Source: Minisyncoccota bacterium (GTDB taxonomy: Bacteria; Patescibacteriota; Minisyncoccia; Phycocordibacterales; PALSA-1337). Taken from it: a DNA stretch of 28,548 nt. The notes under the pieces are model-generated. The model was not told where the DNA came from and searched no databases. It saw only the letters and a program-made list of their open reading frames with translations. The stretch covers positions 158,618 to 187,165 of the forward strand of contig JBAZRG010000002.1 of NCBI GenBank assembly GCA_041663145.1, read 5' to 3'. This document shows positions 999 through 27,653 of the stretch, one piece after another (the stretch's first letter is position 1; every line of letters begins with the position of its first letter). The translations under genes were made by a program, and so were the position numbers.

Positions 999-3900
999 TT
1001 AGACTTCTTGTTCCATGCACCATGTTCTGGCGTTCTGAAACATATGAAGCCATGGTGAAGCCCCAAGTCTTTGCCAAGAGGCTGGCATCCATGGCCACTG
1101 CCACAAACGGAAACAACGCTCGGGATGAGGCATCATCGCTAGATGGCGACCATCAAGGGAACAGAGTGCTGTCATTCCACCCGGCGAACCGTTGGGGTTG
1201 TACGGGTATTCTTCCGTACGATTCCCATGTAGATCCAGATAAGCGAGAGGGGATAGTTTGGCCTTGATGACCTTATCTAGAATCGACTGATCTGGATAGA
1301 ATAGCCGACCTTCACCATGAGCAACCCATACGCCAAGTCTCGAACCTTCCATTCCGGAGAGAAGCACCGACGGGCTGGGCAGAATTTCCACCTGAACCCA
1401 TCGAGATTCGAATCTCTTCGAGATGTTGTGAATGAATCGTGGCTGCTTTTCACTTTCAATCATTCTCCATGGAATCCATCCGAGTAGTGCCATGAGTTGA
1501 CAGCCATTGCAGACGCCGAGCGAGAACGTATCTCGACGAGCGTAGAAACGGTCGAACATCTCTCGAAGCTTTGGGTTGAACAAGATCGCTCCTGCCCAGC
1601 CTTTGGCACTGTCGAATACATCCATATAGGAGAAACCTCCGGCGAATATGATGCCTTGGAATTGATCCAAGTTGATCCTGTCTTCGAGGAGATCACTCAT
1701 CGCAACATCCCATGGAGCAAGACCGCCGGCCAAACAAGCAGCCTGCATCTCACGATCTCCATTCGTACCTTCTTCACGGATGACTGCCACTCGTGGCTTG
1801 TCGGCCGCATTTAGGATGTCTGGGGTAGTGTTTTTGGGTTCGAATGAAAGCCTGTAACCGAGATGTCCCAGATCGTTTCGATCGGTGTGGTTGTGGCCAA
1901 AGTATTCAACCTTGGCACATTGGGGATTCATCTGAAGTTTTTCGATCTCATAGCTTGTGGATTCCCACCACGTGCGTAATTGTTCGGTTGAGGTTAAGAA
2001 TGTCTTACCTCCTCCGTGAATCGCACATGTAGTACCTGGAAGCGTGATACCGATTTCGCATATCTCAATTCCGTAGAATGAACATATTTCCCCAATCCTA
2101 CATAGAGCCTCTCTTTCGAATTCCAAGATAAGACCGAGTTCTTCGTTGAAAAGCTCTGCAAGTAGGTCTATGTCCTTTCCAAGAGCCAATCTGAATCCGC
2201 AATAGCTTGCCATGCACATCTCGGCAACTGCGGTTATGAGGCCACCGTCACTTCGGTCGTGCATAGCTAGGATGAGATCTTCACCGATCATTTGTTGGAT
2301 CGCAAGGAATGCATTCTTGAGGAGTTTCGGATCATCAACATCGGGTGTTTCGTCGCCAAGCTGATTGAAGGCTTGAGCAAGAGCTGAACCACCCAAACGA
2401 CATTTGTGGTGCAAGACACCTTGAGTGTCGAGTCTTCCGCTTAGGTCAATCAATCCAAGCATGCTCTCACCTGGCATCTTGATGTCGGGTGTAACTTTCT
2501 TAGTGATATCGGGTACGGGTGCGTAACCGAGTATGACGAGACTTCCTGGAGCCTTAACGAGTTCTCCCTGAACCGTTGCCGCCATAGAAAGGCTATCTTT
2601 GCCTCCGTCAACTGCGATACCAAGTTCGACCATTAGGTCGGACATGGCAACCGCAGCATCGTAGAGGAGAACTCCTTCATGTGGCAGTTTGGCTGGATAC
2701 ATCCAGTTGGCACGACAGCGAATGTCGTTAATGCCACTGACTTTGACACTGGCCATGTTGGTGAGCATTTCTGCTACAGCCAGACGAGCACCAGCCTTTT
2801 CGTCGATGAGCATTTTTATCGGCTGTTCGCCGACCGCACTTACCGCCCCGGTCAGACCGAAGTGGCTTTGCGCGTTAACACTGTTGTCGGCGATCGGGAT
2901 CTGGGCTATACCACAGCATTGCTGCTGTGCTACCAGTCCCGTGACGCTCCGGTCCACCTTATGAACCAGGTAACCTTTCGAACCGACCGAGGGAAGCTTG
3001 AAGACTTTTTCGATAGCTTCTCCTACGGTTATCTCTGGCAGATCCAAGGGTTTGAGCTCCTTGGTCTTCCGTGCTGATTCGAAAGTCTTCTGAGGCATGT
3101 TCGTGAGAACCTGCTCCAGATTGAGGTCAACAGGTGTGTGTCCGTTTGTGGAATCTTCAACGACAACCTTATGATTGCCGGTTATTTCTCCGAGAACTTC
3201 GCAGTTCACTCGTTCCCGCTTGCAGATCGACTGAAAGAGTCCGATCTGTTCAGGTCTGATCAGGAGGCCGTATCCTTCTTGGAATTCAGCACTCCAGATC
3301 TTGAGGACCGACATGGTCTTGTCGCCAAGCACGATCTTCCGGATATTGATAGTTCCGCCGAGCGGCTCCAGTAGTTCCGTAAGAACATTGCTCGGACCGC
3401 CGGCTCCCTGGTCGTGAATGCTCGAGATGGGATTCTTATCTCCCATTTCGATGCAGGCTCGGATAACGCGATTCGCTCGATTTTCCATCTCTGCGTTGCC
3501 ACGTTGGACGGAATTGAAATCGAGCGTATCGGTATTTTGACCCTGCATCATGCTGGAGGCGCTTCCGCCACCGACACCGATAGGGTAGGCAGGTCCGCCG
3601 ATGCGGACGATCTTCATGCCGACTTCCGGCGTCTCTTTTGCGAGATGCTGGTCAAACAAATGACCAATACCACCGCTGTAGAGAATAGGCTTGCGTGGCT
3701 CGCGCCATTCACCATCGACGATCTGACCGAAGGTTCGACAGAATCCCAGTGTGAGTGGTTCGCCGAATTGATTGCCATAACTCGATACGCCGTTGCTACC
3801 CTCGATGAGGATCGAAAGCGGCGAAGCATACTTGGAAGGCTTATCACGGCCGACTACCTCTTCCGGTATTTCATAACCCTGAATGAAGAGATTGCCGACG

Positions 3901-4856
3901 AAGTAGCCCGCGACGCCGATACCGGTCCAACCACCACGGCCGACCGCCGTGTTGTCGCGGATCCGACCTCCGGAGCCTGTTTGGGCACCGGGGAACGGGG
4001 CGACGAATGTCGGATGATTATGAGTCTCTGCGGTCGCGGTGATGTGAACCACTCTGTCGCAAATTCTCATTTCAGAAGGTTCGCCTGGCGCAAGTGGCAG
4101 GATCAGACTAGTTCTGTATCCCTGGACAGCGCCGGCATTGTCCCTGAAGGCGATGAGGCCGACTCGGTCCATCTCCTCGAGGCAAATAAGCGGATGCTGG
4201 ACGATCTCCATTAGTGTGCGTTTCATCGGCACGCCGTCGATGACGATCTGACCTTTGAAGTACCAGTGACGGCTATGCTCGCTGTTGGCGTTGCCGAGCT
4301 GAAAGAGCTCGACATCAGTCGGGTTCCTTTTGAGGATCTCCGCAAAAAGGTGATAATAATATTCGATGTCCTTAGCATCCATGCCAAGGCCTAGAGTAGA
4401 GTTCATTTCCTCGAGAGCTATTCTTCCACGACCCATGAGGTCAATGGTTCTGACTTCTTCTGGTGTCTCCCCAGTGTTAAAGGATTTGATTCCTTCTCGC
4501 AAACGTTGCTCGGTCATGCGATCAAGGTGAGCCTTGAGGATTGTATCACTTGATTGTCCGTCGCCCATCAAATAACGATGGGTACGTTCGATACGCGTGA
4601 TTTGCCGTAAATCCATTGAGTGACATATCGAGACAGCATTCGAAGAGAACGGAGTCTCGATCGAAAGCCGAGGCCCGATCTCGACAATTTCTCTTGTTCG
4701 GAAATGTGGTTCAAATCCGGTTTTATTCGGTTCGAAAGTTTCTGCGATGAGCCATTGAAGTTGACTAATATCCTGAGTCGACAGTTGGCCTGTGGTTTCA
4801 ACGTAGAAACCAAGTTCCAGGCCACTGCTGATCCGACGATATATGCTATAGATCAT
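999..4856 (-). CDS. purL: Phosphoribosylformylglycinamidine (FGAM) synthase, large single-chain type
   Basis: 1285 aa. It has the N-terminal PurL linker domain, duplicated AIR-synthase-related (PurM-like) domains and a C-terminal class I glutamine amidotransferase with the GVCNGCQLM nucleophile motif. AGGAGA SD lies upstream of the ATG at 4856. Confidence 0.95.
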   Translation of the reverse strand: MIYSIYRRISSGLELGFYVETTGQLSTQDISQLQWLIAETFEPNKTGFEPHFRTREIVEIGPRLSIETPFSSNAVSICHSMDLRQITRIERTHRYLMGDGQSSDTILKAHLDRMTEQRLREGIKSFNTGETPEEVRTIDLMGRGRIALEEMNSTLGLGMDAKDIEYYYHLFAEILKRNPTDVELFQLGNANSEHSRHWYFKGQIVIDGVPMKRTLMEIVQHPLICLEEMDRVGLIAFRDNAGAVQGYRTSLILPLAPGEPSEMRICDRVVHITATAETHNHPTFVAPFPGAQTGSGGRIRDNTAVGRGGWTGIGVAGYFVGNLFIQGYEIPEEVVGRDKPSKYASPLSILIEGSNGVSSYGNQFGEPLTLGFCRTFGQIVDGEWREPRKPILYSGGIGHLFDQHLAKETPEVGMKIVRIGGPAYPIGVGGGSASSMMQGQNTDTLDFNSVQRGNAEMENRANRVIRACIEMGDKNPISSIHDQGAGGPSNVLTELLEPLGGTINIRKIVLGDKTMSVLKIWSAEFQEGYGLLIRPEQIGLFQSICKRERVNCEVLGEITGNHKVVVEDSTNGHTPVDLNLEQVLTNMPQKTFESARKTKELKPLDLPEITVGEAIEKVFKLPSVGSKGYLVHKVDRSVTGLVAQQQCCGIAQIPIADNSVNAQSHFGLTGAVSAVGEQPIKMLIDEKAGARLAVAEMLTNMASVKVSGINDIRCRANWMYPAKLPHEGVLLYDAAVAMSDLMVELGIAVDGGKDSLSMAATVQGELVKAPGSLVILGYAPVPDITKKVTPDIKMPGESMLGLIDLSGRLDTQGVLHHKCRLGGSALAQAFNQLGDETPDVDDPKLLKNAFLAIQQMIGEDLILAMHDRSDGGLITAVAEMCMASYCGFRLALGKDIDLLAELFNEELGLILEFEREALCRIGEICSFYGIEICEIGITLPGTTCAIHGGGKTFLTSTEQLRTWWESTSYEIEKLQMNPQCAKVEYFGHNHTDRNDLGHLGYRLSFEPKNTTPDILNAADKPRVAVIREEGTNGDREMQAACLAGGLAPWDVAMSDLLEDRINLDQFQGIIFAGGFSYMDVFDSAKGWAGAILFNPKLREMFDRFYARRDTFSLGVCNGCQLMALLGWIPWRMIESEKQPRFIHNISKRFESRWVQVEILPSPSVLLSGMEGSRLGVWVAHGEGRLFYPDQSILDKVIKAKLSPLAYLDLHGNRTEEYPYNPNGSPGGMTALCSLDGRHLAMMPHPERCFRLWQWPWMPASWQRLGASPWLHMFQNARTWCMEQEV

Positions 4857-12548: not shown

Positions 12549-14333
12549 ATGTCTTTTGAACGTAATAAATACCCCAAAGTGGCGATTTCCGATGTGATAC
12601 GGGAATATTTGCCTGTGGCCAAGGAAAAACTCGGCTCATTGTCTTTCGTATTCCTCTCGACTGTAGCAGTCTCTGTTATTGGAGGCATCATCGTACCTTT
12701 ATATTACAAGCAATTTTTTGATTTATTGACACAGAACTCCGATAAGACAGTTATAGTTCCAGCATTATTGAAGATCCTAATCACCATATTGCTCCTCAAT
12801 ATATTCAATGTGTCTTTCTATCGTCTGTACACATACTTTATGATACGGTTTCAGACTCATGTCATGGCACGACTCCGACATATTGGGTTTGAATACTTGC
12901 TCGGCCATTCCTATATCTACTTCAGCAATAACTTTACCGGTTCACTGACTCAGAAAGTCAATCGTTTTTCCCGTTCATTTGAAAGAATCACTGACAGATT
13001 CTTCTATGAAATAATTCCGATCCTTATCAAAATCATCGGAATAAGCATCGTTCTTTGGTATGTAAATCCGATTTTGACCGGCATAATCTTCGTCTGGTTT
13101 GTGATCTACCTCATCATGTCCGTGTATTTTGCCAGATGGAAATTACCTTACGATATCAAATACGCGGAGTTGGAATCACGGGCAACAGCCGCTCTTTCCG
13201 ATAGCGTATCGAATCACACAACCATACAGTTGTTCAACAGATACAATCTCGAGTCTCTGATATTTGGTGTTGCCAATACAAATCATACAAAAGCTATGGC
13301 CAAGCGTTGGCACATAAGTAATGTCATCGACGGTGTACAAGCAGGACTCAATATTGCAATTGAATTTCTCATATTCTTTTACGCGATAAAATTCTGGGGA
13401 CTGGGGATGATTTCCGTCGGCGCTTTCGTTTTGATCCAGATGTATATCATCGGTCTTATGCACGATCTGTGGGGATCTAGCCGTATCCTTCGCGATCTCT
13501 ATGAATCATTCGCCGATGCCAAGGAAATGGTCGAGATCATGAAACTCGAACATGAGATAAAAGACGCACCAGATGCTTTGCCTATAAAAGTCAGCACAGG
13601 CAGAATCGATCTTAACGATGTTAAATTTGATTTTAATAAAGATATCGCGGTCCTAAACGGTATCGATCTGCATATCGAGGCGGGTGAGAGAGTGGCCTTG
13701 ATCGGTCCATCCGGGGCGGGAAAATCGACACTGGTTCGACTTCTATTGCGCATGTACGATATCAAGGGTGGTTCCATAGTCATTGATGGACAGAATATAA
13801 AGGAAATCACGCAGGGAAGTTTGCGTGAGGCCATAAGCTTTGTTCCGCAAGACCCGATACTGTTCCACCGTTCACTCAAAGATAATATTCGATATGGAAA
13901 AACAGATGCTACAGATGAGGAGGTTATAGAAGCCGCCAAGCTCGCTCATTGCCATGAATTCATCTCCAGTTTGCCAAATGGCTACGATACTTTCGTCGGA
14001 GAACGCGGTATCAAACTATCCGGAGGAGAACGTCAGAGAGTGGCTATAGCTAGGGCAATTCTCAAAAACGCGCCAATCCTTGTTTTGGATGAAGCGACTT
14101 CAAGTCTGGATTCTCATTCTGAAATCTTGATACAGGAAGCACTTGATATCCTCATGAAAGGAAAAACAGTTATCGTCATTGCTCATCGTCTATCAACTAT
14201 CAGAAAAATGAATCGCATCGTTGTACTCGAAAACGGTAATATCCTGGAGCAAGGTTCCCATGAAGATTTGCTAGCCAAGAATGGTTTGTATGCAAAGCTA
14301 TGGTCTTTGCAGTCTCATGGATTTATAAAATAA
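12549..14333 (+). CDS. ABC transporter, fused permease/ATP-binding exporter type (MsbA/lipid-A exporter-like)
   Basis: N-terminal 6-TM exporter domain; C-terminal NBD with Walker A GPSGAGKST, the LSGGERQRVAIARA signature and Walker B ILVLDEATSSLD. Confidence 0.9.
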   Translation: MSFERNKYPKVAISDVIREYLPVAKEKLGSLSFVFLSTVAVSVIGGIIVPLYYKQFFDLLTQNSDKTVIVPALLKILITILLLNIFNVSFYRLYTYFMIRFQTHVMARLRHIGFEYLLGHSYIYFSNNFTGSLTQKVNRFSRSFERITDRFFYEIIPILIKIIGISIVLWYVNPILTGIIFVWFVIYLIMSVYFARWKLPYDIKYAELESRATAALSDSVSNHTTIQLFNRYNLESLIFGVANTNHTKAMAKRWHISNVIDGVQAGLNIAIEFLIFFYAIKFWGLGMISVGAFVLIQMYIIGLMHDLWGSSRILRDLYESFADAKEMVEIMKLEHEIKDAPDALPIKVSTGRIDLNDVKFDFNKDIAVLNGIDLHIEAGERVALIGPSGAGKSTLVRLLLRMYDIKGGSIVIDGQNIKEITQGSLREAISFVPQDPILFHRSLKDNIRYGKTDATDEEVIEAAKLAHCHEFISSLPNGYDTFVGERGIKLSGGERQRVAIARAILKNAPILVLDEATSSLDSHSEILIQEALDILMKGKTVIVIAHRLSTIRKMNRIVVLENGNILEQGSHEDLLAKNGLYAKLWSLQSHGFIK

Positions 14334-17644: not shown

Positions 17645-17899
17645 TAAGTCGATTTTCGAATTATTATCAGAAATGCAATCAGTAAACTCTGATTGTTCTC
17701 TTATGCTTTCTTTTTTATTTCTATACCAAGCTCGATCAACTGACTAGGTTCGACAAGTGATATTTTTGGTGGTTTTAGTTTCTCTTAAATATATTAAACG
17801 CAGAGATTCCACTTATCATCTGTTTTCAATCTCCACTGACTAGGGTTGTTACGAGGTAGTCTATTAATAAGCTAACATAGGTGTATATATTTTAATCAA

Positions 17900-18095
17900 T
17901 ATGTGTTATATTTCTGGCATACCTATGATCCGGCAGACACCGGTGAGGTGAAGAAAGAAAGCCATCCTTTGATTGGTTAGTAGAATCTTCCGGTAGTGCT
18001 CCGATATGCAGAAATGAAGAAAAAAACAGGGTGGCACCGCGACAAAATCGCCCCTGCGGATTTATTAAAATTAATGAATTCGGAGGGGTGTTTTT
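17900..18095 (+). promoter_or_regulatory. T-box riboswitch leader with intrinsic terminator upstream of the AspRS paralog
   Basis: Canonical T-box sequence AACAGGGTGGCACCGCG (18026-18041; consensus AGGGTGGNACCGCG, with the bulge UGGC matching tRNA 3' GCCA and discriminator G as in tRNA-Asp/Asn). It is immediately followed by the terminator CCCCTGCGGA(18051-18060)...TTCGGAGGGG(18079-18088)+TGTTTTT. The ATG is at 18139. Stem I and the specifier were not resolved by eye, so the 5' boundary is approximate. Confidence 0.7.
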
Positions 18096-18138
18096 ATTTA
18101 CAGCAAGTAGGTGGGACATTTCTTCGAACACAAGTACC

Positions 18139-19467
18139 ATGCAAAGAACATATATAAGAGATCTAAAAGAGTTTATAGGTAAAGAAATTAGCATTTCAGG
18201 ATATGTCGATGTACGTCGCAATCAAGGTAAGATGGTGTTTTTCGAATTTCGCGATCGGACGGGCAAGATACAGGGGGTGGTACTTCCTAATAATTCAGAA
18301 GCTCTTGAATCTTCCAAAGAAATACGTTCGGAATGGGTTGTAGAAATAATTGGCATCGTAAATAAACGTCCGCAAAAGAACATTCAAGCCGGAAAGATGA
18401 ACGGGGATATCGAACTTGAGATTAAACATATTAATGTCCTTGGAATAGCCAAAGAACTTCCGTTTGAAAAAGATTCTGAGATTAACATCGATACGTATCT
18501 CGATTACCTTCCACTCACTCTTCGAAGTCAAACACACACGACCGTCTTCAAAGTTCAGGCAGTTATTGCTAAGGCCTTCAGAGACTTCTTTACAAAAGAG
18601 GGTTTTACGGAATTTCAAGCACCGAAATTAATTGGTGATGATGCCGAAGGTGGGGCGAACTCTTTTGATGTTACATATTTCAAACATATCGCACATTTGG
18701 CTCAAAGTCCCCAGTTATATAAACAGATCATGGTCGGCGTATTTGAACGTGTTTTTTCTGTCGGAAACGTATATCGTGCGGAGAAGCATAGTACAACGCG
18801 TCATCTCAATGAATATACCAGTCTAGACATGGAAATGGGCTATATTAAAGATCATTATGATGTCATGAATTCTGAAAATCAATTTTTGCAATATCTTGAA
18901 AATGTTCTTCGTGCCTCTTGTGTTGATGATTTTGCCTTGCTCGGTGCCACTATACCAACGGTCCCGAAAGAAATTCCAAAATTGACCTTACGCGAAGCTC
19001 AAACACTTATCACAACAGATACCGGTAAAGATTGTACAAATGATCCGGATCTTGAGCCTGAACATGAAAGATGGCTTTGTAAGTATGCCGAGAAGAATTT
19101 TAATTCCGACTTTATTTTCGTCACTAATTTTCCGACAGCTAAGCGACCGTTCTATACTTATAGAGATGAAAAAGATCCAACATATACTAAAGGTTTTGAC
19201 CTGCTCTTTCGTGGTGTAGAAATCACTACTGGTGCGCAACGCATCCATAACTACGACGACCTTGTTAGTTCCATGAAAGAGAAGAAGCTTGATCCTGAAA
19301 AGTTCAAATATTATCTTCAAGCTTTCAAATATGGCATGCCTCCACACGGAGGTCTAGGACTTGGGTTGGAGCGCATCACGGCAAAGCTTCTTGGTCTAGA
19401 AAATATCAAGGAAGCCACTCTTTTCCCGAGAGATATTAACAGGATCGATAACCTATTGTCAGAATAG
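18139..19467 (+). CDS. Class IIb aspartyl-tRNA synthetase paralog (archaeal/eukaryotic type), AT-rich copy
   Basis: Start moved to 18139 (MQRTYIRDL...) downstream of the T-box terminator. N-terminal OB anticodon-binding domain; flipping-loop motif LAQSPQLYKQ (AspRS-type QSPQ); motif 2 YRAEKHSTTRHLNEYTSLDME; motif 3 GGLGLGLERITAKLLGLENIKEATLFPRD. GC is far lower than the second copy at 23312. Confidence 0.8.
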   Translation: MQRTYIRDLKEFIGKEISISGYVDVRRNQGKMVFFEFRDRTGKIQGVVLPNNSEALESSKEIRSEWVVEIIGIVNKRPQKNIQAGKMNGDIELEIKHINVLGIAKELPFEKDSEINIDTYLDYLPLTLRSQTHTTVFKVQAVIAKAFRDFFTKEGFTEFQAPKLIGDDAEGGANSFDVTYFKHIAHLAQSPQLYKQIMVGVFERVFSVGNVYRAEKHSTTRHLNEYTSLDMEMGYIKDHYDVMNSENQFLQYLENVLRASCVDDFALLGATIPTVPKEIPKLTLREAQTLITTDTGKDCTNDPDLEPEHERWLCKYAEKNFNSDFIFVTNFPTAKRPFYTYRDEKDPTYTKGFDLLFRGVEITTGAQRIHNYDDLVSSMKEKKLDPEKFKYYLQAFKYGMPPHGGLGLGLERITAKLLGLENIKEATLFPRDINRIDNLLSE

Positions 19468-19503
19468 AGATTAACTATTAAGATAAGCGCATCAAAAATC
19501 ATC

Positions 19504-20241
19504 ATGTATAAACAAGGAATAGAGGTAAAAAGAGAAACAAATTTTGGGATTATTCTTGAGAAGTCCTCATGGTTTTCAATTGTCGAATCTCTTTTCCCGA
19601 AAAGTGAGCGAATCTATTATCCAAATGATCAGGATGAGGTGTTACATATAATCGTGGATGATATTGACATCGCTTTTATCTCTGGTCAAGGTTCAAGCAT
19701 GGTCGCGTGCATGACTGAAAGATTAAGAGTATATGGATCAAAGGCAATAATTAGAATTGGGACATGTGGAGCATTATCGCAAGAAATAAAACTATGGTGT
19801 CCAATTATTACGACAGCATGTTTTAGTAGCGAAGGTACCTCAAAGCATTACTTACCGTGCGGCTATCCTATTATATCTGACTTTAATCTGAATACCCTCC
19901 TCATTAAAAAATTAATTAAAGGAGGTGTTGATTACCAACAAGGTATTACATTAACAACAGATGGTAGATGGCGAGAAGATCCGGTATTGCTCAAACAATT
20001 ATGTCAGCTGGGGGTTATTTCTATTGAAATGGAAACGGCGGCAATTTTATCAGTTTGTCAGTTTAGAAAATTACCTGCAGCTGCAATAAATATTCCAACT
20101 GATTTACCAGCAGACGAGGAAAGTGAAGAAGATTTTAAGGGCATACCAAATCGAGAAACTTATGAATCAGATTTGAGAAAATGTTTAATGAAAATCATTC
20201 CTTTTGCAGTGGAGACCTTAAAAGATTTATATCATAAATAA
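19504..20241 (+). CDS. PNP_UDP_1 family protein, MTA/SAH-nucleosidase-like (Mtn-like)
   Basis: IIRIGTCGALSQ corresponds to the substrate-binding GSAGG loop (NTGSAGG) of MtnN. LTTDGRW carries the catalytic Asp. ISIEMETAAILSVCQ matches the VEMEATAIAHVC motif. It sits 36 nt after the AspRS paralog stop. Confidence 0.6.
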   Translation: MYKQGIEVKRETNFGIILEKSSWFSIVESLFPKSERIYYPNDQDEVLHIIVDDIDIAFISGQGSSMVACMTERLRVYGSKAIIRIGTCGALSQEIKLWCPIITTACFSSEGTSKHYLPCGYPIISDFNLNTLLIKKLIKGGVDYQQGITLTTDGRWREDPVLLKQLCQLGVISIEMETAAILSVCQFRKLPAAAINIPTDLPADEESEEDFKGIPNRETYESDLRKCLMKIIPFAVETLKDLYHK

Positions 20242-20250
20242 ATCAAACAA

Positions 20251-20877
20251 ATGACAATCTGGGCAAACATGATCTATGGTGAAGATGTTAAATTTACTAC
20301 ACCGTTACCAGATAAAGGTTTCCTGACATCCTTTTCAAAAGACATAAGTATTCTTGATGTTGGTTGTGGATATGGAAGAGTTCTAAGTTATTTACAGAGT
20401 TTGGGTTTTACAAATTTGACAGGTTTCGATATATCCTCAAATTACGTATTAGAGGCCAAGAAAAATTGCCAAGATGCAAACCTCTTTGTTTCTGATTTCA
20501 AAAGTTTAAATCTGAATAAGAAATATGATCTAATCTTACTGATGGGGGTTATTGAATATATTCTCACTGATAAAGATCAGGACGCTTTTTTTAGGAAGCT
20601 TTCTGGAGAGCTCTCTACCAATGGATCTGTTTTGCTGGAAACTTTTATTATTGATTTCAAACCAAATTGGAAACAATATATTTTAGGATTTATAAAAACA
20701 TTGCATTTTGGACGGTTTAGAAACAGTAAAGGTTTTGAGTGTCACCATCAGTCGATAAATGGTTTAAGGGTGATATTACAAAAATACTTCATTATTAATT
20801 CAGAGACAGAAAAATGTTATGTAACATGGACCAATAATTATTGCCGTGGGTATAATATTAATTTGAAGAAAAAATAA
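20251..20877 (+). CDS. Small class I SAM-dependent methyltransferase-fold protein
   Basis: Motif I ILDVGCGYGRVLSYL and an acidic post-I residue (GFDIS). 208 aa. The gap to the upstream gene is 9 nt. Confidence 0.7.
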   Translation: MTIWANMIYGEDVKFTTPLPDKGFLTSFSKDISILDVGCGYGRVLSYLQSLGFTNLTGFDISSNYVLEAKKNCQDANLFVSDFKSLNLNKKYDLILLMGVIEYILTDKDQDAFFRKLSGELSTNGSVLLETFIIDFKPNWKQYILGFIKTLHFGRFRNSKGFECHHQSINGLRVILQKYFIINSETEKCYVTWTNNYCRGYNINLKKK

Positions 20878-20881
20878 TTAT

Positions 20882-22960
20882 ATGGAATCAGATTTAGATA
20901 ATTTAATTAAAACTGTTTCAATACAGGAGGAGCGGAAAAGCAGGTGTATAAACCTTATTGCATCAGAAAACATAATCAGTGATAGGGTTAGCCAATTGCA
21001 GGCATCGTTGCTTTCTAATCGGTATATTCTCAATGATTTTCCAAACAATAAAGAACTTTTTGAAATTAAGGAAAAACTGAAATATCATCTTTGCAAAATG
21101 TTTAATGTTAAATATGTCAACATATCGCCGCTTTCGGGTATGAGTTGTATGAGTTTGATTATCAGCAGTCTAACAAACAAAAATGATAACATCTACACGT
21201 TGAAACCTCTTGATGGAGGCCACGCGTCGACCGAAAAAATATGTCACATGTATCATTTGAATATTAACTATTTACCATTTAGTAATATCGATTATCGATT
21301 CAATTTAGAAGAAATAAAGAAAATATTCGAGATAAGAAAACCACGTCTAATATATTTGGATAATACGATCATCAGTTTTTATTCTCCAGTTGATGAGTTG
21401 AAGAAACTTGCAGAAAAATATTATGCTCCGATTGTATATGATGGTTCGCATGTCTTGGGTTTAATCGCTGGTAAGTCGTTTCCGAATCCAATAGAAAACG
21501 GAGCAGATATTTTGAGTGGCAGTACTCATAAAACATTCTTTGGTTCCCAAAAAGGAATCATCTTGACTAATAACCAGGATCTAATAAATAAAATTAATTC
21601 TATATCAAATGATTATATATCTAGTCTTCACACAGGAAGTCTTTTGGCTTTGTATATGAGTGTATTAGAAATGGAAAAATTTGGGAATGAATATGCCATG
21701 CAAGTTGTAAAAAATGCCAAGGCATTGGGGAAAAATCTGGCTATAAATGGGGTTGCAATTCCCACTCTTGAAAAGGGTGTGACTGAAACGCATCAAGTTT
21801 GGATAGACACAGGTAAAGTTGACCCACAAAGAGCATTTGAAATGCTTGCTGAATGTAATATCAATACAAACCCTATTCGGATACCTGCGATACAAAAAGT
21901 TGGACTAAGATTGGGAACTGCGGAAGTGACGAGATTGGGAATGAAAGAAGATGAAATGAAACAGATAGCGAAATTTATTTCTGAAGTATTGATTGGTTCT
22001 AAAGAAAAGAACCTCGTTAAGGAAGATGTAATCAAGTTTAGTGGTAAATATCAAAAAACACTTTTCACTCTAGACAATTATAATAGCAATGTTGATCTTC
22101 CTCTTATGATAAAAGAAAACGAAGTTATTTTAGACCAAAGATTTGAAACACATGATGTAATAAATAATACAACAGTTGTGGGATATGGGGATATTGTGGG
22201 CAAATATGTCAAAGACTTTTTTAGTATAATTCCTGGTTTTCAGGGACTTATTATTCGGGGTGGTGTTGGTAGGGGTACTGCTGATGACTTGTCAGATATT
22301 GATTTCACATGTGTATTTGATTGTGATGATATTGAGAAAATCAAAAAACAATATGGACTTAAAACCGGCATGTATAAATATAATGGAATTATGTTTTCAG
22401 GCCGATATATATCTCTGAATTCGTTTAGAGACAGCTTATGGTCACCTAAAATGAAACATGCTTATTCATATGTGAAGTTGATACATTGTGCCAAAACAAT
22501 TAGTGACATAATAAAAAAGAAAACAAAGATTTCGATTTCAGAACAAAAAAGGAGGTTAGTAGAGAATGTTATTGAGTTGGGAGAAATCTGTAAGGTTTTT
22601 AATGAGTATCACGGTTTTAAAATGTTTTCAGAAATCTATAAACAATATTCAAGAAAAGAATTTTTGGTGGCAAATTTAGAAATTGATAGAGCAGTAAGAT
22701 ATATAAAAAATATAATTTTCGATCTTAACAAAATTAACTATCCTGAGGAAAAAAGTTATTATACTAAGTTCTTTTCCGGTTTACCTAAGCAACCTGACGG
22801 ATTTGATCATCAGATTAAAACCATATTACAAATGCCTCGGGATGATAGAAGTTTTGGAAAACGACTAACACTTCTTGTAATATTAGCCAGAGAGGTTTTG
22901 GGTTATTGTGAAAAATATGTATCTTTACCAAAGGACATATATAAGTTTTACCTGAACTAG
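20882..22960 (+). CDS. Fusion protein: N-terminal SHMT-like fold-type I PLP enzyme plus C-terminal Pol-beta-superfamily nucleotidyltransferase with a helical domain
   Basis: N-terminal half: LIASENIIS (SHMT LIASENFTS), LDGGHAST (SHMT GGHLTHG), YDGSHVLGL (PLP-Asp region DMAHxxGL) and SGSTHKTFFGSQKGIIL (SHMT TTTTHKTLRGPRGG, the PLP lysine). C-terminal half: RGGVGRGTADDLSDIDFTCVF fits the minimal NTase hG[GS]x(9-13)Dh[DE]h motif, followed by a helical substrate-binding-like domain as in ANT/LinB-type nucleotidyltransferases. The gap to the MTase gene is 4 nt. Confidence 0.6.
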   Translation: MESDLDNLIKTVSIQEERKSRCINLIASENIISDRVSQLQASLLSNRYILNDFPNNKELFEIKEKLKYHLCKMFNVKYVNISPLSGMSCMSLIISSLTNKNDNIYTLKPLDGGHASTEKICHMYHLNINYLPFSNIDYRFNLEEIKKIFEIRKPRLIYLDNTIISFYSPVDELKKLAEKYYAPIVYDGSHVLGLIAGKSFPNPIENGADILSGSTHKTFFGSQKGIILTNNQDLINKINSISNDYISSLHTGSLLALYMSVLEMEKFGNEYAMQVVKNAKALGKNLAINGVAIPTLEKGVTETHQVWIDTGKVDPQRAFEMLAECNINTNPIRIPAIQKVGLRLGTAEVTRLGMKEDEMKQIAKFISEVLIGSKEKNLVKEDVIKFSGKYQKTLFTLDNYNSNVDLPLMIKENEVILDQRFETHDVINNTTVVGYGDIVGKYVKDFFSIIPGFQGLIIRGGVGRGTADDLSDIDFTCVFDCDDIEKIKKQYGLKTGMYKYNGIMFSGRYISLNSFRDSLWSPKMKHAYSYVKLIHCAKTISDIIKKKTKISISEQKRRLVENVIELGEICKVFNEYHGFKMFSEIYKQYSRKEFLVANLEIDRAVRYIKNIIFDLNKINYPEEKSYYTKFFSGLPKQPDGFDHQIKTILQMPRDDRSFGKRLTLLVILAREVLGYCEKYVSLPKDIYKFYLN

Positions 22961-23197
22961 TTGAGACTGATGGGATATTCACGGCTTTATCGGTAGCATT
23001 ATTATAAAGAAAGCCATTCGTGGCAACTAGGATATTTAATTACAAGATGACTGATCTATTTCAGTTTATTCAAGATATGGATATCAGAAAAGATAGCTAT
23101 TTTTTCATTGTATGTGGTGAAGTGTCTCCGAGCTATCGAACTCAAGCGGCTTCAAAAGCTGACTAACCTCACATACATATTGCACTCATTAAAAAGC

Positions 23198-23226
23198 TTG
23201 ACAATATTAATATTGTTTGTTACTTT
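23198..23226 (+). promoter_or_regulatory. Sigma70-type promoter for aspS copy 2
   Basis: Perfect -35 TTGACA (23198-23203), 17-nt spacer, then TGt-TACTTT (extended -10 with a weak hexamer). A strong SD GAAAGGAGGTG lies upstream of the ATG at 23312. Confidence 0.4.
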
Positions 23227-23311
23227 ATCATAAGAACTATAAATGGAGTTCATCTTTTTATAGTAGTTATTATGAACAAAATGACCACAACAAATTGAAA
23301 GGAGGTGGCAA

Positions 23312-24616
23312 ATGAATCGCACATTGACTCAATACATACCGGCTTTAATCGGCCAACAAGTAAAAGTTGCGGGCTTTTCACAAGTTATTCGCGACCAAAA
23401 GAAAATGCAGTTTGTGATCCTTAGAGATCAGACGGGGCAGGTTCAGATCTGTCATGAAAAAGGTGGTGACGAGGATGAGTTGAAAAAGACCATCTCTTCA
23501 CTCACCGCTGAATCAGCGGTCACTGTTATCGGTCGCGTGGTCGAAAACAAGGGCGTGAAGCTTGGTGGAGTCGAGATTGTGGCGGAGTCGATTGATGTCT
23601 CAAGCATCGCCATTGTGCCATTACCGATTACGCCGGAATCATCGCTCGATCTGCAGATGGACTGGCGGATGCTTAGCCTGAGACAGCCAGAAAATCTCCT
23701 GATCTTCCAGGTCCAGACGACCATGGAGCAGGCGATGAGGGAGTTCTGGGCTGACAACGGATTCATCGAGGTACATTCGCCGAAGCTTATGGCAACGGCG
23801 AGCGAATCGGGTGCCGAGCTGTTTCAGCTTGAGTACTTCGGACAGAAAGCGACTCTGGCTCAATCGCCACAGTTTTATAAGCAAATGGCGATGGCGGCAG
23901 GGTTTGATCGGATCTTCGAGATCGCGCCTGTATTCCGTGCTAATCCGTCGTTCACATCACGACATGACACCGAGTTTACCTCGGTTGACATGGAGATATC
24001 GTGGGTTGATTCCCATGAAGATCTGATGCATATCGAGGAAACTTGGTTGCATCATGTGGTCAAACGAGTGTCGGAGAAACACGGTAAAGCCATCAAGGAC
24101 ACCTTCGGAGCTGATGTGGTGATTCCTCAGCTTCCATTTCCGAGGGTTACCTTGGCAAATGCGCGAGAGATTCTCGCAAAGCAGGGTCATACCATGGAGC
24201 AAATCACCGACCTCGATCCGCCCGGCGAAAGAGGTTTGGCGGAACACATCAAGAAGGAATTTGGTCACGAGTTTGTTTTCGTGATCGACTACCCGATTGA
24301 TGTGCGGCCGTTCTACCACATGCGTCATGTCGGCAATCCCGGCATCACCAAGAGCTTCGACCTTTTATGGAAGGGGCTTGAAGTGACGACGGGTGCACAG
24401 CGTGAACATCGTGTCGAGACGCTCGAACAGCAGGCACGGGAAAAGGGCTTGGCTCTTGCTCCTCTTGCACACTATATCAACTTCTTTCGTTACGGCTGTC
24501 CACCGCACGGAGGATTTGGCGTGGGACTTACGAGGCTTCTCATGGTTCTCCTTGATCGTAAGAACGTCAGGGAAGTGACCTACCTCTATCGCGGGCCTAA
24601 TCGCCTGACACCGTAA
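23312..24616 (+). CDS. aspS: Aspartyl-tRNA synthetase, archaeal/eukaryotic type (class IIb)
   Basis: OB-fold N-terminus; QSPQFYKQ flipping loop; motif 2 FRANPSFTSRHDTEFTSVDMEI; motif 3 GGFGVGLTRLLMVLLDRKNVREVTYLYRGPNRLTP (compare archaeal AspRS ...FPRDRRRLTP). GC is typical of the surrounding genome. Confidence 0.85.
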   Translation: MNRTLTQYIPALIGQQVKVAGFSQVIRDQKKMQFVILRDQTGQVQICHEKGGDEDELKKTISSLTAESAVTVIGRVVENKGVKLGGVEIVAESIDVSSIAIVPLPITPESSLDLQMDWRMLSLRQPENLLIFQVQTTMEQAMREFWADNGFIEVHSPKLMATASESGAELFQLEYFGQKATLAQSPQFYKQMAMAAGFDRIFEIAPVFRANPSFTSRHDTEFTSVDMEISWVDSHEDLMHIEETWLHHVVKRVSEKHGKAIKDTFGADVVIPQLPFPRVTLANAREILAKQGHTMEQITDLDPPGERGLAEHIKKEFGHEFVFVIDYPIDVRPFYHMRHVGNPGITKSFDLLWKGLEVTTGAQREHRVETLEQQAREKGLALAPLAHYINFFRYGCPPHGGFGVGLTRLLMVLLDRKNVREVTYLYRGPNRLTP

Positions 24617-24639
24617 TTGTTCTTTGGTTAGTTAACACA

Positions 24640-24670
24640 CAGCTAGGATGAAAGTCCTGGCTGTTTTTTT
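24640..24670 (+). terminator. Rho-independent terminator after aspS
   Basis: Stem CAGCTAGG(24640-24647)/CCTGGCTG(24656-24663), 8 bp including one G-U pair, loop ATGAAAGT, then TTTTTTT. Confidence 0.5.
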
Positions 24671-24749
24671 AAAAGGCAAGGCAAAAATTCGTAAGTTCCA
24701 GAATTAATTGCAACACCAGTACGTATGATTTGTGTTAATATGTTGAAAC

Positions 24750-26610: not shown

Positions 26611-27366
26611 ATGTCCGAATACTATAATTCACGTCGAAGCCGTAATCTATTTGATCCTACGAGCACGGAACCTTTCAGGGTCAGTCGGTCGAAGATCGAT
26701 CTCTATTTGAATTGTCCGCTTTGTTTCTATCTCGATTGCAAGTTGGGCGTGGGCAGACCGCCCGGATTTCCATTTGCACTGAACTCGGCCGTAGACGCTC
26801 TTCTCAAAAAAGAATTTGACATTCATCGAGCAAAAAAGAGGCCTCATCCACTCATGCATGCTTACGGATTGAAAGATATTATTCCATTCAGTCATGAGGA
26901 TCTAGATATATGGAGGAGCAATTTTAAGGGTATAAGATACATCCATTCCCCGACAAATCTTTTGGTCACTGGAGCTATCGATGACGTTTGGACTGATTCG
27001 GATGGGGAACTGATAATTGTTGACTACAAATCAACTAGTAAAGAAGAAAAAGTTTCGCTTGATAAAGAGTGGCAGATCGGATACAAGCGTCAAATGGAGA
27101 TATATCAATGGCTTTTCCGACAAAATGGATTCAAGGTTTCAAAAACAGGATATTTTGTCTATTGCAATGGTAAGACAGACAGGGAAGCATTCGACGCCAA
27201 ACTCGATTTTGATATAGATCTTATCCCTTATGTTGGCGATGATTCATGGATCGAAGGCGCTCTCAAGGAATTGAAAGAGTGTCTGTTACTACCAAAACCA
27301 CCTAAACCTGCCGAGACTTGTGATTACTGTTCTTACAGAAAAGCTTCGAGGGATGTTCAGAGATGA
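26611..27366 (+). CDS. PD-(D/E)XK nuclease with cysteine cluster (Cas4-like/RecB-family exonuclease fold)
   Basis: N-terminal CPLCFYLDC plus C-terminal CDYCSY form a 4-Cys Fe-S-type arrangement as in Cas4/AddB. The nuclease core is GAIDDV ... LIIVDYKST ... YKRQMEIYQ (D...ExK, QxxxY). No CRISPR array or other cas genes are nearby. Confidence 0.6.
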   Translation: MSEYYNSRRSRNLFDPTSTEPFRVSRSKIDLYLNCPLCFYLDCKLGVGRPPGFPFALNSAVDALLKKEFDIHRAKKRPHPLMHAYGLKDIIPFSHEDLDIWRSNFKGIRYIHSPTNLLVTGAIDDVWTDSDGELIIVDYKSTSKEEKVSLDKEWQIGYKRQMEIYQWLFRQNGFKVSKTGYFVYCNGKTDREAFDAKLDFDIDLIPYVGDDSWIEGALKELKECLLLPKPPKPAETCDYCSYRKASRDVQR

Positions 27367-27368
27367 TT

Positions 27369-27537
27369 CGTAACCCCCACAACACCCTCATTTGTTTTCC
27401 TCGAACTCTGCTCACAATATACCAACATTTTCACAAAGGATGCGCTACAAGGATTCGCGCATCCTTTGGAAAATGTGTTGGTATATTATTTCGCAGATTA
27501 TTCTCGGAATACAAATGAGGGTGTTGTGGGGGTTACG
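27369..27537 (+). repeat. Long rod-like hairpin element D, about 169 nt
   Basis: Terminal arms CGTAACCCCCACAACACCCTCATTTGT / ACAAATGAGGGTGTTGTGGGGGTTACG are perfect reverse complements (27 bp). There is an inner near-perfect hairpin AATATACCAACA..AAAGGATGCGC-loop-GCGCATCCTTT..TGTTGGTATATT. It begins 3 nt after the stop of the Cas4-like gene. Confidence 0.55.
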
Positions 27538-27653
27538 AAGACTAGTAATGACATCATGGAATGCATAGTGTAAGATATTTCTGTATCCGAGTACTTTAAA
27601 AAGTTTTTCACTCACCCACAAAGAGAGTATTCGATATAGAAAGATGTACCAAT

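Follow-up and report, generated by a model that had tools for sequence, protein, structure and literature searches.

A rare cassette with a PLP enzyme-nucleotidyltransferase fusion, linked to aspartyl-tRNA synthetase genes and an unusual T-box leader, in a Patescibacteria genome

Gene content and limits of the block

The window analysed here is a 28,548-nt stretch of the genome of a Minisyncoccota bacterium of the Patescibacteria (assembly GCA_041663145.1, contig JBAZRG010000002.1, positions 158,618 to 187,165), in which a T-box leader, two aspartyl-tRNA synthetase (AspRS) genes and a cassette of enzyme genes form one block on the forward strand. Coordinates are those of the window. The leader with its terminator occupied 17916-18099 (leader to antiterminator, 17916-18059) and was followed by the genes for AspRS1 (18139-19467), an enzyme of the NP-I (PNP_UDP_1) superfamily (19504-20241), a class I S-adenosylmethionine (SAM)-dependent methyltransferase of small-molecule type (20251-20877) and a 692-aa fusion of a pyridoxal phosphate (PLP) enzyme with a nucleotidyltransferase (20882-22960). 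These four genes were co-directional with gaps of 36, 9 and 4 nt, as the original prediction, made from the letters of this stretch, had described. The second AspRS gene that it had placed at 23312 was present (AspRS2, 23312-24616), with a strong GGAGG ribosome-binding site, and an intrinsic terminator with an 11-bp stem and a T-run closed the block (24639-24671). The 350-nt gap from the end of the fusion gene to the start of AspRS2 (22961-23311), intergenic at first sight, contained the remnant of a purine (adenine/hypoxanthine-type) phosphoribosyltransferase gene (22960-23190).

By blastn against three relatives, the block from 17887 to 24671 was common to loci L005/L010 and L012 at about 91-93% nucleotide identity, while the flanks were unrelated. 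Edge alignments placed the left edge in the -10 region of the leader promoter and the right edge at the end of the terminator behind AspRS2, so that the conserved unit runs from promoter to terminator over about 6.8 kb. The gene cluster that had been proposed was real, but the coherent unit reaches further and takes in AspRS2 with its terminator. The block edges carried neither direct nor inverted repeats, and no transposition or integration mechanism was thus identified.

The drop in GC content reported earlier for 17650-22960 was also real and not typical of the genome, but its true extent was 19500-23311, the cassette plus the remnant, where GC was 0.31-0.35 and every 700-nt segment lay lower than the flanks at their minimum (0.363). 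Against flanks of 0.43, neither the leader (0.41) nor AspRS1 (0.396) was anomalous; AspRS2 was anomalously GC-rich (0.516). The cassette was AT-richer than its surroundings in five of six loci. With its AT-richness relative to the flanks, and block edges that are sharp in three unrelated contexts, the cassette is, on sequence criteria, horizontally mobile. A terminator scan of the block gave no terminator-like site between AspRS1 and the cassette, which therefore sits under the AspRS1 T-box and is predicted to be co-transcribed with this native, T-box-regulated aspS.

The T-box leader

At the gathering threshold Rfam returned no match for the leader, and a permissive search matched RF00230 with 42.1 bits, where the gathering score is 93. 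The score is low because Stem I is ultrashort (72 Stem I positions of the model are deleted) and Stem III is absent. The leader comprised a K-turn-like AUGA, an ultrashort Stem I (CCGG at 17930-17933 with CCGG at 17940-17943) capped by the 6-nt apical loop CAGACA, a Stem II that contains an AGUAGAA S-turn, stem IIA, and an antiterminator whose UGGC bulge lies at 18032-18035. Alignment of homologous leaders resolved Stem I as 3 + 4 bp capped by the 6-nt loop, with the loop consensus C(A/U)GACA, an Asp codon plus a conserved purine. The specifier codon is GAC (17936-17938), followed by the purine A17939, which bears out the Asp specificity expected from the duplicated AspRS. GACA was kept in five of the six leaders, GAA-A occurring only in the decayed leader of L012, and in L001 the stem was changed on both sides. 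The UGGC bulge fits a G73-CCA end such as that of the tRNA-Asp(GUC) of L001.

The antiterminator (AGGGUGGCACCGCG...CGCCCCU, 18028-18055) and the terminator hairpin (18051-18088) use the same CCCCU strand and are therefore mutually exclusive; both helices were kept in the homologues, with two-sided changes. The hairpin, reproduced in the minimum-free-energy fold and supported by covariation (helix 7), is followed by UGUUUUUAUUU (U-run 18089-18099) about 40 nt upstream of the start codon. This position and the U-run mark it as an intrinsic terminator (18051-18099) rather than a Shine-Dalgarno sequestrator, and the same terminator design was present in L001, L005, L011 and L173.

Homologous leaders lay upstream of aspS in L005/L010, L011 (7035-7222), L012, L173 (4424-4618) and L001 (12119-12300). 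Across six leaders, 86-90% of the alignment cells could pair and 15-19 pairs changed on both sides, a result reached by 0 of 500 shuffles, with slid controls at 34-50%; the test covers six sequences only, and L001 contributes most of the double changes. The covariance model R1, made from these leaders, scored the window leader at 164.6 bits and found no further T-boxes of this class beyond these aspS leaders in 443 kb of related loci. The T-box that had been proposed here was thus upheld by covariation although it is below threshold in Rfam, and judged by its structure it is a real, Asp-reading and transcription-attenuating T-box.

The T-box of L012 (7033-7225) has decayed in a block that is otherwise 92% identical. 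Its loop reads UUGAAA instead of CUGACA, its T-box core GGGUAGAACC stands in place of GGGUGGCACC, and the 3' arm of the terminator has been lost and replaced by CCAAAAAAG. It scored 96.7 bits with the covariance model against about 165 for the others. These changes suggest constitutive read-through in that genome, and T-box control therefore appears dispensable for the block.

A 2020 review states that transcriptional T-boxes generally need a long Stem I with an elbow-binding motif, and that an ultrashort Stem I with the specifier in its apical loop belongs to translational, mostly actinobacterial T-boxes (PMC7583486). The ultrashort-Stem-I T-boxes of actinobacterial ileS genes (Sherwood et al., 2015, as reviewed in PMC7583486) share with the window leader the apical-loop specifier, the truncated Stem I without an elbow-binding platform, Stem II with an S-turn, stem IIA and a UGGN bulge. 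They differ in that the known ultrashort examples are translational, whereas the window leader has an intrinsic terminator, reads Asp and belongs to Patescibacteria. An ultrashort Stem I, with neither elbow platform nor Stem III, together with what is predicted to be an intrinsic terminator is an unusual combination. In the literature searched, no paper linked T-boxes with Patescibacteria or the candidate phyla radiation (CPR), an absence that is no proof of novelty.

The two aspartyl-tRNA synthetases

Both AspRS proteins were full length and exceeded the equivalog cut-offs of 353 (NF003483) and 368.4 bits (TIGR00458), with 503 and 379.5 bits for AspRS1 and 471 and 386.7 bits for AspRS2; Pfam gave tRNA-synt_2 plus the anticodon domain, and the anticodon-binding OB domain was included in each. 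By profile, the two are archaeal-type enzymes of the "aspartate-tRNA(Asn) ligase" or "non-discriminating" equivalog. They shared 35% identity and fell into separate, large clades of Patescibacteria; for either copy, more than 100 homologues exceeded 63% identity.

AspRS1 had been cast as an inducible resistant target, and this role was not borne out. It nested within the ordinary Paceibacterota aspS clade and was 84, 77 and 72% identical to the aspS products of the cassette-free loci L173, L174 and L175, so that it is the ordinary aspS of the lineage. In L174 and L175 the aspS context was a housekeeping one (TrpRS...aspS...ScpA-ScpB-FtsW-MurG-GluRS). The aspS of L173 carried the same T-box and adjoined orthologues of the right flank of the window, namely PDDEXK (82%), peptidyl-prolyl isomerase (62%) and DHH (53%) genes. 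The shared T-box and neighbourhood indicate that AspRS1, T-box included, is the native and ordinary aspS, beneath which the cassette was inserted. Among positions that at least 95% of clade members share, AspRS1 deviated at 3 of 205 and AspRS2 at 1 of 162; the leave-one-out background had medians of 2 and 1 and maxima of 5 and 4, and both synthetases lay within this range.

AspRS2, which had been regarded as the resident housekeeping gene, is instead a compositionally foreign, GC-rich copy that travels with the block. Its group included the L003 copy, which is linked to a cassette, and the L176 copy, which is not, and it was 100% identical to a protein annotated "Candidatus Paceibacterota".

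Locus L176 was first read as a cassette-free tandem AspRS pair, a reading that was rejected when NCBIfam identified the first gene as AsnRS-like, followed by an AspRS2-type gene. An S51-family peptidase gene lay directly upstream of these two genes, which are separated by 23 nt (L176 3790-7305), and a tRNA-Asp gene lay 2.7 kb upstream. The S51 peptidases include PepE, an Asp-X dipeptidase, and MccG, which detoxifies AspRS-targeting isoaspartyl-nucleotides (PMC9239234). In L011, a 55-aa stretch 3' of the phosphoribosyltransferase gene (12642-12806) resembled the C-terminal part of AspRS2 (34% identity, E = 7e-8) and may be the remnant of a lost second AspRS.

The enzymes of the cassette

The product of 19504-20241 had been called an Mtn-like nucleosidase, a call that failed: it scored 22.9 bits with the Mtn equivalog NF004079, whose cut-off is 169, and 75.8 bits with AMP nucleosidase, 66.3 with uridine phosphorylase and 61.6 with DeoD, all below their own cut-offs. 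Taken together, the uridine phosphorylase and DeoD scores spanned 58-66 bits. The ranking of solved structures agreed, with the short AMP nucleosidase 1YBF first, followed by uridine phosphorylases and DeoD, and the ribose motif reads EMET. By these scores the protein is AMP-nucleosidase/uridine-phosphorylase-like and not a methylthioadenosine/S-adenosylhomocysteine nucleosidase (Mtn). Pfam and NCBIfam searches upheld the class I methyltransferase and the fusion of an SHMT (serine hydroxymethyltransferase)-like with a nucleotidyltransferase domain. The best solved relatives of the methyltransferase were cyclopropane fatty acid synthase, BamL/BpumL, ToxA and DesVI, enzymes of small-molecule or natural-product type. 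The phosphoribosyltransferase gene was intact in L005, L011, L012 and L003, and only short open reading frames (ORFs) were left in the window, where positions 22960-23109 matched an internal piece of the intact 192-aa gene of L005/L012 and two deletions had taken the rest (blastn). Intact in relatives and fragmentary here, the gene has decayed in the window.

The predicted model of the fusion (pLDDT 84.7) showed two confidently folded domains with a disordered linker between them, an SHMT-like PLP domain (residues 1-395, 20882-22066) and an ANT(4')/Lnu-like nucleotidyltransferase domain with a HEPN-like helical lobe (residues 434-692, 22181-22960). Pfam and NCBIfam gave SHMT plus a weak NTP_transf_2 match. 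The PLP domain was closest to archaeal SHMT (Methanocaldococcus jannaschii 4BHD, 206 bits), with the ObiH transaldolase (7K34) at 115 bits, and it stayed below the curated cut-offs for SHMT (243 of 335 bits) and for fluorothreonine transaldolase TIGR04506 (231 of 650 bits). The PLP lysine K217, D187, H114, S85/G86 and the carboxylate-binding R343 were invariant. In Escherichia coli GlyA numbering, all 27 family members kept S35, Y55, S97/G98, H126, D200, H228, K229 and R363. Loop 56-67, with E57, R63, Y64 and Y65, was replaced in 27 of 27 members by a shorter invariant RY.L.D-FPNN in which Y65 became Phe; R63 and Y65 were retained in the 91 canonical SHMTs compared. Archaeal SHMT and the SHMT-like threonine transaldolases are, like this domain, fold-type-I PLP enzymes with kept PLP and carboxylate contacts, and the window domain differs from them in the shortened loop, the lack of E57 and R63, the Phe at Y65 and the scores below cut-off. 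The domain thus looks like a PLP enzyme that has been re-tooled without losing the ability to bind an alpha-amino acid. It is presumably not a decarboxylase of the MccE type.

The C-terminal domain had the pol-beta nucleotidyltransferase fold, with a G[SG]...D.D motif (invariant G..GRG...SD.D) and a C-terminal helical substrate lobe, and by fold it is a small-molecule nucleotidyltransferase of the KNTase/Lnu type. Its closest solved relatives were ANT(4'), LinB, ANT(6) and ANT(3'')(9), all antibiotic-inactivating. From the ANT(4') kanamycin and Lnu/LinB nucleotidyltransferases it differs by an identity of only 10-16%, by being fused or adjacent to a PLP enzyme and by forming a rare family of its own. 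About 27 full-length fusions were found among 5.8 billion clustered proteins, and the family of the C-terminal domain had 46 representatives with E < 1e-3 among 1.84 billion. Some relatives of this domain stood alone, at about 260 aa, and others were fused to GNAT or PPDK_N/PEP-utilizer modules. The nearest homologue of the whole fusion was annotated "Patescibacteria group bacterium".

Contig scans with the full-length fusion alignment picked SHMT-derived patterns and returned almost only ordinary archaeal-type SHMTs. They gave three true fusions in genome contigs and, with these SHMT-derived patterns, none in metagenome contigs of the JGI. Viral contigs scanned for the C-terminal domain yielded none, with a C-terminal alignment too diverse for pattern design.

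Locus L170 encoded the PLP part as a protein of its own, with the same loop signature, directly followed by a stand-alone nucleotidyltransferase 42% identical to the window domain. This split version gives a Rosetta-stone argument that the two activities work together. The gene set there (L170 6544-12341) comprised a 2-oxoglutarate (2OG)-Fe(II) oxygenase, an AP_endonuc_2 (sugar-phosphate isomerase-like) protein, the PLP enzyme, the nucleotidyltransferase and a 730-aa protein without a family match. GlyRS and SerRS genes and an IS66 fragment lay a few kb upstream.

Recurrence of the cassette

A neighbourhood survey, which rests on 12 exact-protein look-ups, found the three-gene core of nucleosidase-type enzyme, methyltransferase and fusion in six of six lineages, at 95-46% identity and often with overlapping stops and starts. 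The window, L005 and L012 shared the order T-box, AspRS1, core, phosphoribosyltransferase, AspRS2. In L011 (fusion 74% identical) the same order ended with the phosphoribosyltransferase, and in L003/L004 (62%) the core was followed by the phosphoribosyltransferase and an AspRS2-type gene. L001 (58%) had an AspRS gene on the opposite strand, the core, and then a T-box with a further AspRS gene; L008/L009/L172 (49-50%) had AspRS, the core and an ATP-grasp-like protein. The most divergent lineage, L002/L171 (about 44-47%), had no aminoacyl-tRNA synthetase and was accompanied by radical SAM genes with small ORFs, an opine dehydrogenase and an ADP-ribosylglycohydrolase.

Fusion homologues had been expected to recur with AspRS genes, and an AspRS gene adjoined the cassette in five of the six lineages, down to 49% fusion identity. 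Every partner synthetase was an AspRS, those of L001, L003 and L008 also passing the equivalog cut-offs, and the partner genes fell into four clades of 35-44% mutual identity. Four clades speak for repeated recruitment, or a functional tie, rather than for inherited synteny. Side-by-side AspRS genes were seen only around the cassette in the loci examined. We infer from these arrangements that the chemistry of the cassette is functionally tied to AspRS. The accessory genes varied and were of small-molecule-pathway type (ATP-grasp-like, opine dehydrogenase, radical SAM with small ORFs, 2OG oxygenase).

In L002 (5956-16757) and L171 (6135-9094), three radical SAM genes were each followed by an ORF of 38-43 aa, a layout like that of RiPPs, peptides made by the ribosome and modified after translation. 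The surroundings also held opine dehydrogenase, metallophosphoesterase, PP2C, kinase and VWA genes.

Discussion

The presence of a rare AT-rich cassette beside AspRS in distant relatives suggests chemistry aimed at AspRS. Our favoured reading, to which we give a probability of roughly 35%, is that the cassette produces an amino-acid-nucleotide conjugate directed at AspRS, with AspRS2 as a back-up. The broader statement, that the cassette either makes or destroys an AspRS-directed amino-acid-nucleotide compound, seems to us an even bet. A more specific proposal is doubtful, namely that the fusion and its partners form a new CPR route whose product, an O-nucleotidylated amino acid, mimics aspartyl-adenylate and so acts as an AspRS inhibitor that is neither ribosomal nor a peptide; the route would be mobile as one self-contained block together with its own AspRS pair. 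In a more radical version, the fusion may convert tRNA-bound aspartate, which would be a new tRNA-dependent amino-acid transformation.

In the favoured scheme, the PLP domain would build or reshape a hydroxyl-bearing alpha-amino acid; this step is proposed because the domain keeps the PLP lysine and the carboxylate-binding arginine and lacks the loop for folate chemistry. The fused nucleotidyltransferase would then esterify the product to a nucleoside monophosphate, by analogy with the action of ANT and Lnu enzymes on drug hydroxyls. The methyltransferase and the nucleosidase/phosphoribosyltransferase pair could tailor or supply the base or the amine, and the product would be an amino-acid-nucleotide conjugate mimicking aspartyl-adenylate. 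Purine nucleoside phosphorylase and adenine phosphoribosyltransferase genes are also present in the related nucleocidin and ascamycin clusters. The T-box would simply couple the operon to the charging of tRNA-Asp, and AspRS2, transferred along with the cassette, would carry on charging as an insensitive or back-up enzyme, resembling AcmD of ascamycin producers. Episymbionts could deploy such an inhibitor against hosts or competitors.

The closest precedent for the favoured reading, as an analogy, is the ascamycin acm cluster, which encodes an extra AlaRS, AcmD, more resistant to the aminoacyl-nucleoside product, and an AlaRS-like AcmF (PMC12945691). Both gene sets place an extra, complete synthetase of one specificity beside conjugate-building enzymes. 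The window block differs in having no sulfamate chemistry, no synthetase-like transferase and no exporter; its AspRS proteins are ordinary clade members, its host belongs to Patescibacteria rather than Streptomyces, and it is known from its genes alone. AspRS is the target of isoaspartyl-nucleotide antibiotics (PMC9239234), and the original prediction had compared the block with microcin C maturation. This comparison is a logical analogy only: AspRS is the implied focus in both, and each gene set has a step of nucleotidyl transfer, an enzyme that depends on SAM and one that depends on PLP. The minimal microcin C set consists of the MccA gene, ThiF-like MccB and an exporter (PMC9239234), however, and the block lacks all three; its nucleotidyltransferase is of the pol-beta/ANT type, and no known microcin C immunity gene is present. 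Neither a ThiF-family protein nor a transporter was found in 17887-24671 or in any cassette locus, and short ORFs occurred only in the phosphoribosyltransferase remnant.

Several points weigh against the favoured reading. The chemistry of the cassette is inferred from predicted folds only. No exporter was found in the block or in any cassette lineage examined. An Asp-specific T-box placed over a pathway for an AspRS inhibitor would create a self-amplifying positive feedback. The decayed T-box of L012 and the lost phosphoribosyltransferase of the window mark neither as essential to the block. At clade-conserved positions, no resistance-type substitutions were seen in AspRS1 or AspRS2, which leaves an insensitive copy without sequence support, and both AspRS1 and its T-box are commonplace in relatives that lack the cassette. 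The L002/L171 clade has no AspRS nearby, the AspRS tallies cover the examined loci rather than the rest of those genomes, and the lineages may not be fully independent samples.

A rather unlikely alternative, although the best placed of the others, is that the block is an inducible detoxification or resistance island in which the cassette inactivates or takes apart an antimetabolite that comes from outside and is directed at AspRS, for example a processed isoaspartyl-nucleotide of the microcin C kind. In this scheme the compound would be modified by the nucleotidyltransferase and an N-methyltransferase and cleaved by the nucleosidase; its base would be salvaged by the phosphoribosyltransferase, and its amino-acid part broken down by the PLP domain. 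Inhibition of AspRS would raise uncharged tRNA-Asp and cause T-box read-through, giving more AspRS1 and more detoxifying enzymes, with AspRS2 adding target dosage. This is a sensible negative feedback, and the T-box logic and the ANT-like fold fit it better than they fit the favoured reading: the closest solved relatives of the nucleotidyltransferase inactivate antibiotics, and distant homologues are fused to GNAT or PPDK_N/PEP-utilizer modules, as drug-modifying enzymes are. An exporter is neither needed nor present, the block is mobile and AT-rich like resistance islands, and several unrelated immunity enzymes against aspartyl-nucleotides are known (PMC9239234). However, none of the known microcin C immunity families (MccE GNAT, MccF, MccH HIT, MccG S51) was found in the block, the T-box link is confined to AspRS1-type lineages and L001, and the accessory genes of the other lineages look biosynthetic. 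The strictly conserved fusion and the translationally coupled three-gene core suggest a multi-step pathway acting on one substrate and not several redundant ways of inactivating it, and detoxification explains this conserved multi-enzyme core with its PLP fusion less well than the favoured reading does.

The remaining readings explain fewer observations. Ordinary nucleotide salvage and one-carbon metabolism of a genome-reduced symbiont, with the proximity to aspS being historical, is quite improbable. The nucleoside phosphorylase/nucleosidase and the purine phosphoribosyltransferase, both of classic salvage families, would recycle bases, and the SHMT-like domain, whose nearest relative is an archaeal SHMT, would supply one-carbon units. 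Patescibacteria generally depend on salvage, and the window also has NUDIX, HIT and PurL genes. The replacement of the E57/R63/Y64/Y65 loop in every member argues against this, and the obligatory fusion to an ANT-type nucleotidyltransferase and the coupling to a methyltransferase would have no role there. The family is much too rare to be a housekeeping one, the cassette is mobile and of foreign composition, and adjacency to AspRS genes of four clades would not be expected from history alone.

Less probable again is a tRNA-directed function, in which the fusion would act on Asp-tRNA(Asp/Asn) or on a nucleoside of tRNA-Asp/Asn and the adjacent non-discriminating-type AspRS would supply the substrate. 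The analogy is with PLP enzymes of the SelA/SepCysS type, which convert tRNA-bound amino acids after ATP-dependent activation; SelA, SepSecS and SepCysS are fold-type-I PLP enzymes, and the PLP domain gave a weak SelA cross-match. The partner synthetases are all of the "aspartate-tRNA(Asn) ligase" type with intact anticodon domains, pol-beta nucleotidyltransferases include enzymes acting on tRNA 3' ends, and in L001 and L003 there are genes for tRNA-Asp and tRNA-Asn within 6-9 kb, although such proximity is weak evidence. The nucleotidyltransferase is, however, closest to the small-molecule ANT/Lnu enzymes and not to CCA-adding or MenT-type ones, no RNA-binding domain was detected, the nucleosidase, methyltransferase and phosphoribosyltransferase would be unexplained, and the L002/L171 clade is without any aminoacyl-tRNA synthetase.

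PNP-fold effectors occur in defence systems, and L003 has restriction-modification, T5orf172 and DUF4357 genes upstream while L171/L002 lie among small ORFs and AAA proteins, but an anti-phage or toxin-antitoxin-like module of nucleotidyltransferase, HEPN-like lobe and nucleosidase effector is highly improbable: PADLOC gave the cassette proteins only generic methyltransferase matches and one weak AriA match (E = 5.7e-5, 21 bits), with no defence assignment and no meaningful match for the nucleosidase or the fusion, none was found on the viral contigs scanned, KNTase itself has the same nucleotidyltransferase plus HEPN-like architecture, and the AspRS linkage and the PLP domain would be unexplained.

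The observations of the original prediction were thus largely confirmed, with corrected boundaries and one corrected family call, and its interpretation was partly supported. Most of the outcomes that it had named as refuting did not occur: the AspRS coupling, the Asp specifier and the foreign composition of the cassette stand, whereas the roles given to the two synthetases do not. What appears to be new is a synthetase-linked, small-molecule-type cassette built on an uncharacterised family of PLP-nucleotidyltransferases, together with an unusual T-box architecture. To our knowledge, secondary metabolism is all but absent from Patescibacteria. Should the cassette prove to make or destroy an amino-acid-nucleotide compound directed at AspRS, the group would have its first such pathway of natural-product or antimetabolite type. 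In that case the cassette would also add a new enzyme family, in which an SHMT-fold PLP enzyme is coupled to an ANT-type nucleotidyltransferase, and would offer a compact four-gene target for heterologous expression. Independently of the role of the cassette, the leader indicates that T-box riboswitches exist in Patescibacteria and that a transcription terminator can go together with an ultrashort Stem I, and it provides a ready test case for the kinetic argument on long Stem I in transcriptional T-boxes.

Other observations

Three features elsewhere in the material were also recorded. Between the PDDEXK gene and the next ORF of the window, a long imperfect hairpin of about 175 nt (27366-27540) gave spurious plant-miRNA matches (MIR7723, 47.7 bits, far below the gathering score). 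On the reverse strand, positions 999-4856 encode a single-chain formylglycinamide ribonucleotide (FGAR) amidotransferase, PurL, of 1285 aa, with a GC content of 0.50-0.57 in a region of about 0.42; a de novo purine-synthesis gene of foreign composition was unexpected in a Patescibacteria genome. In L001, a LOOT RNA (RF03000, 5615-5730, 60 bits against a gathering score of 46.4) lay beside IS3-type transposase genes and a serine recombinase gene, a few kb from the cassette.

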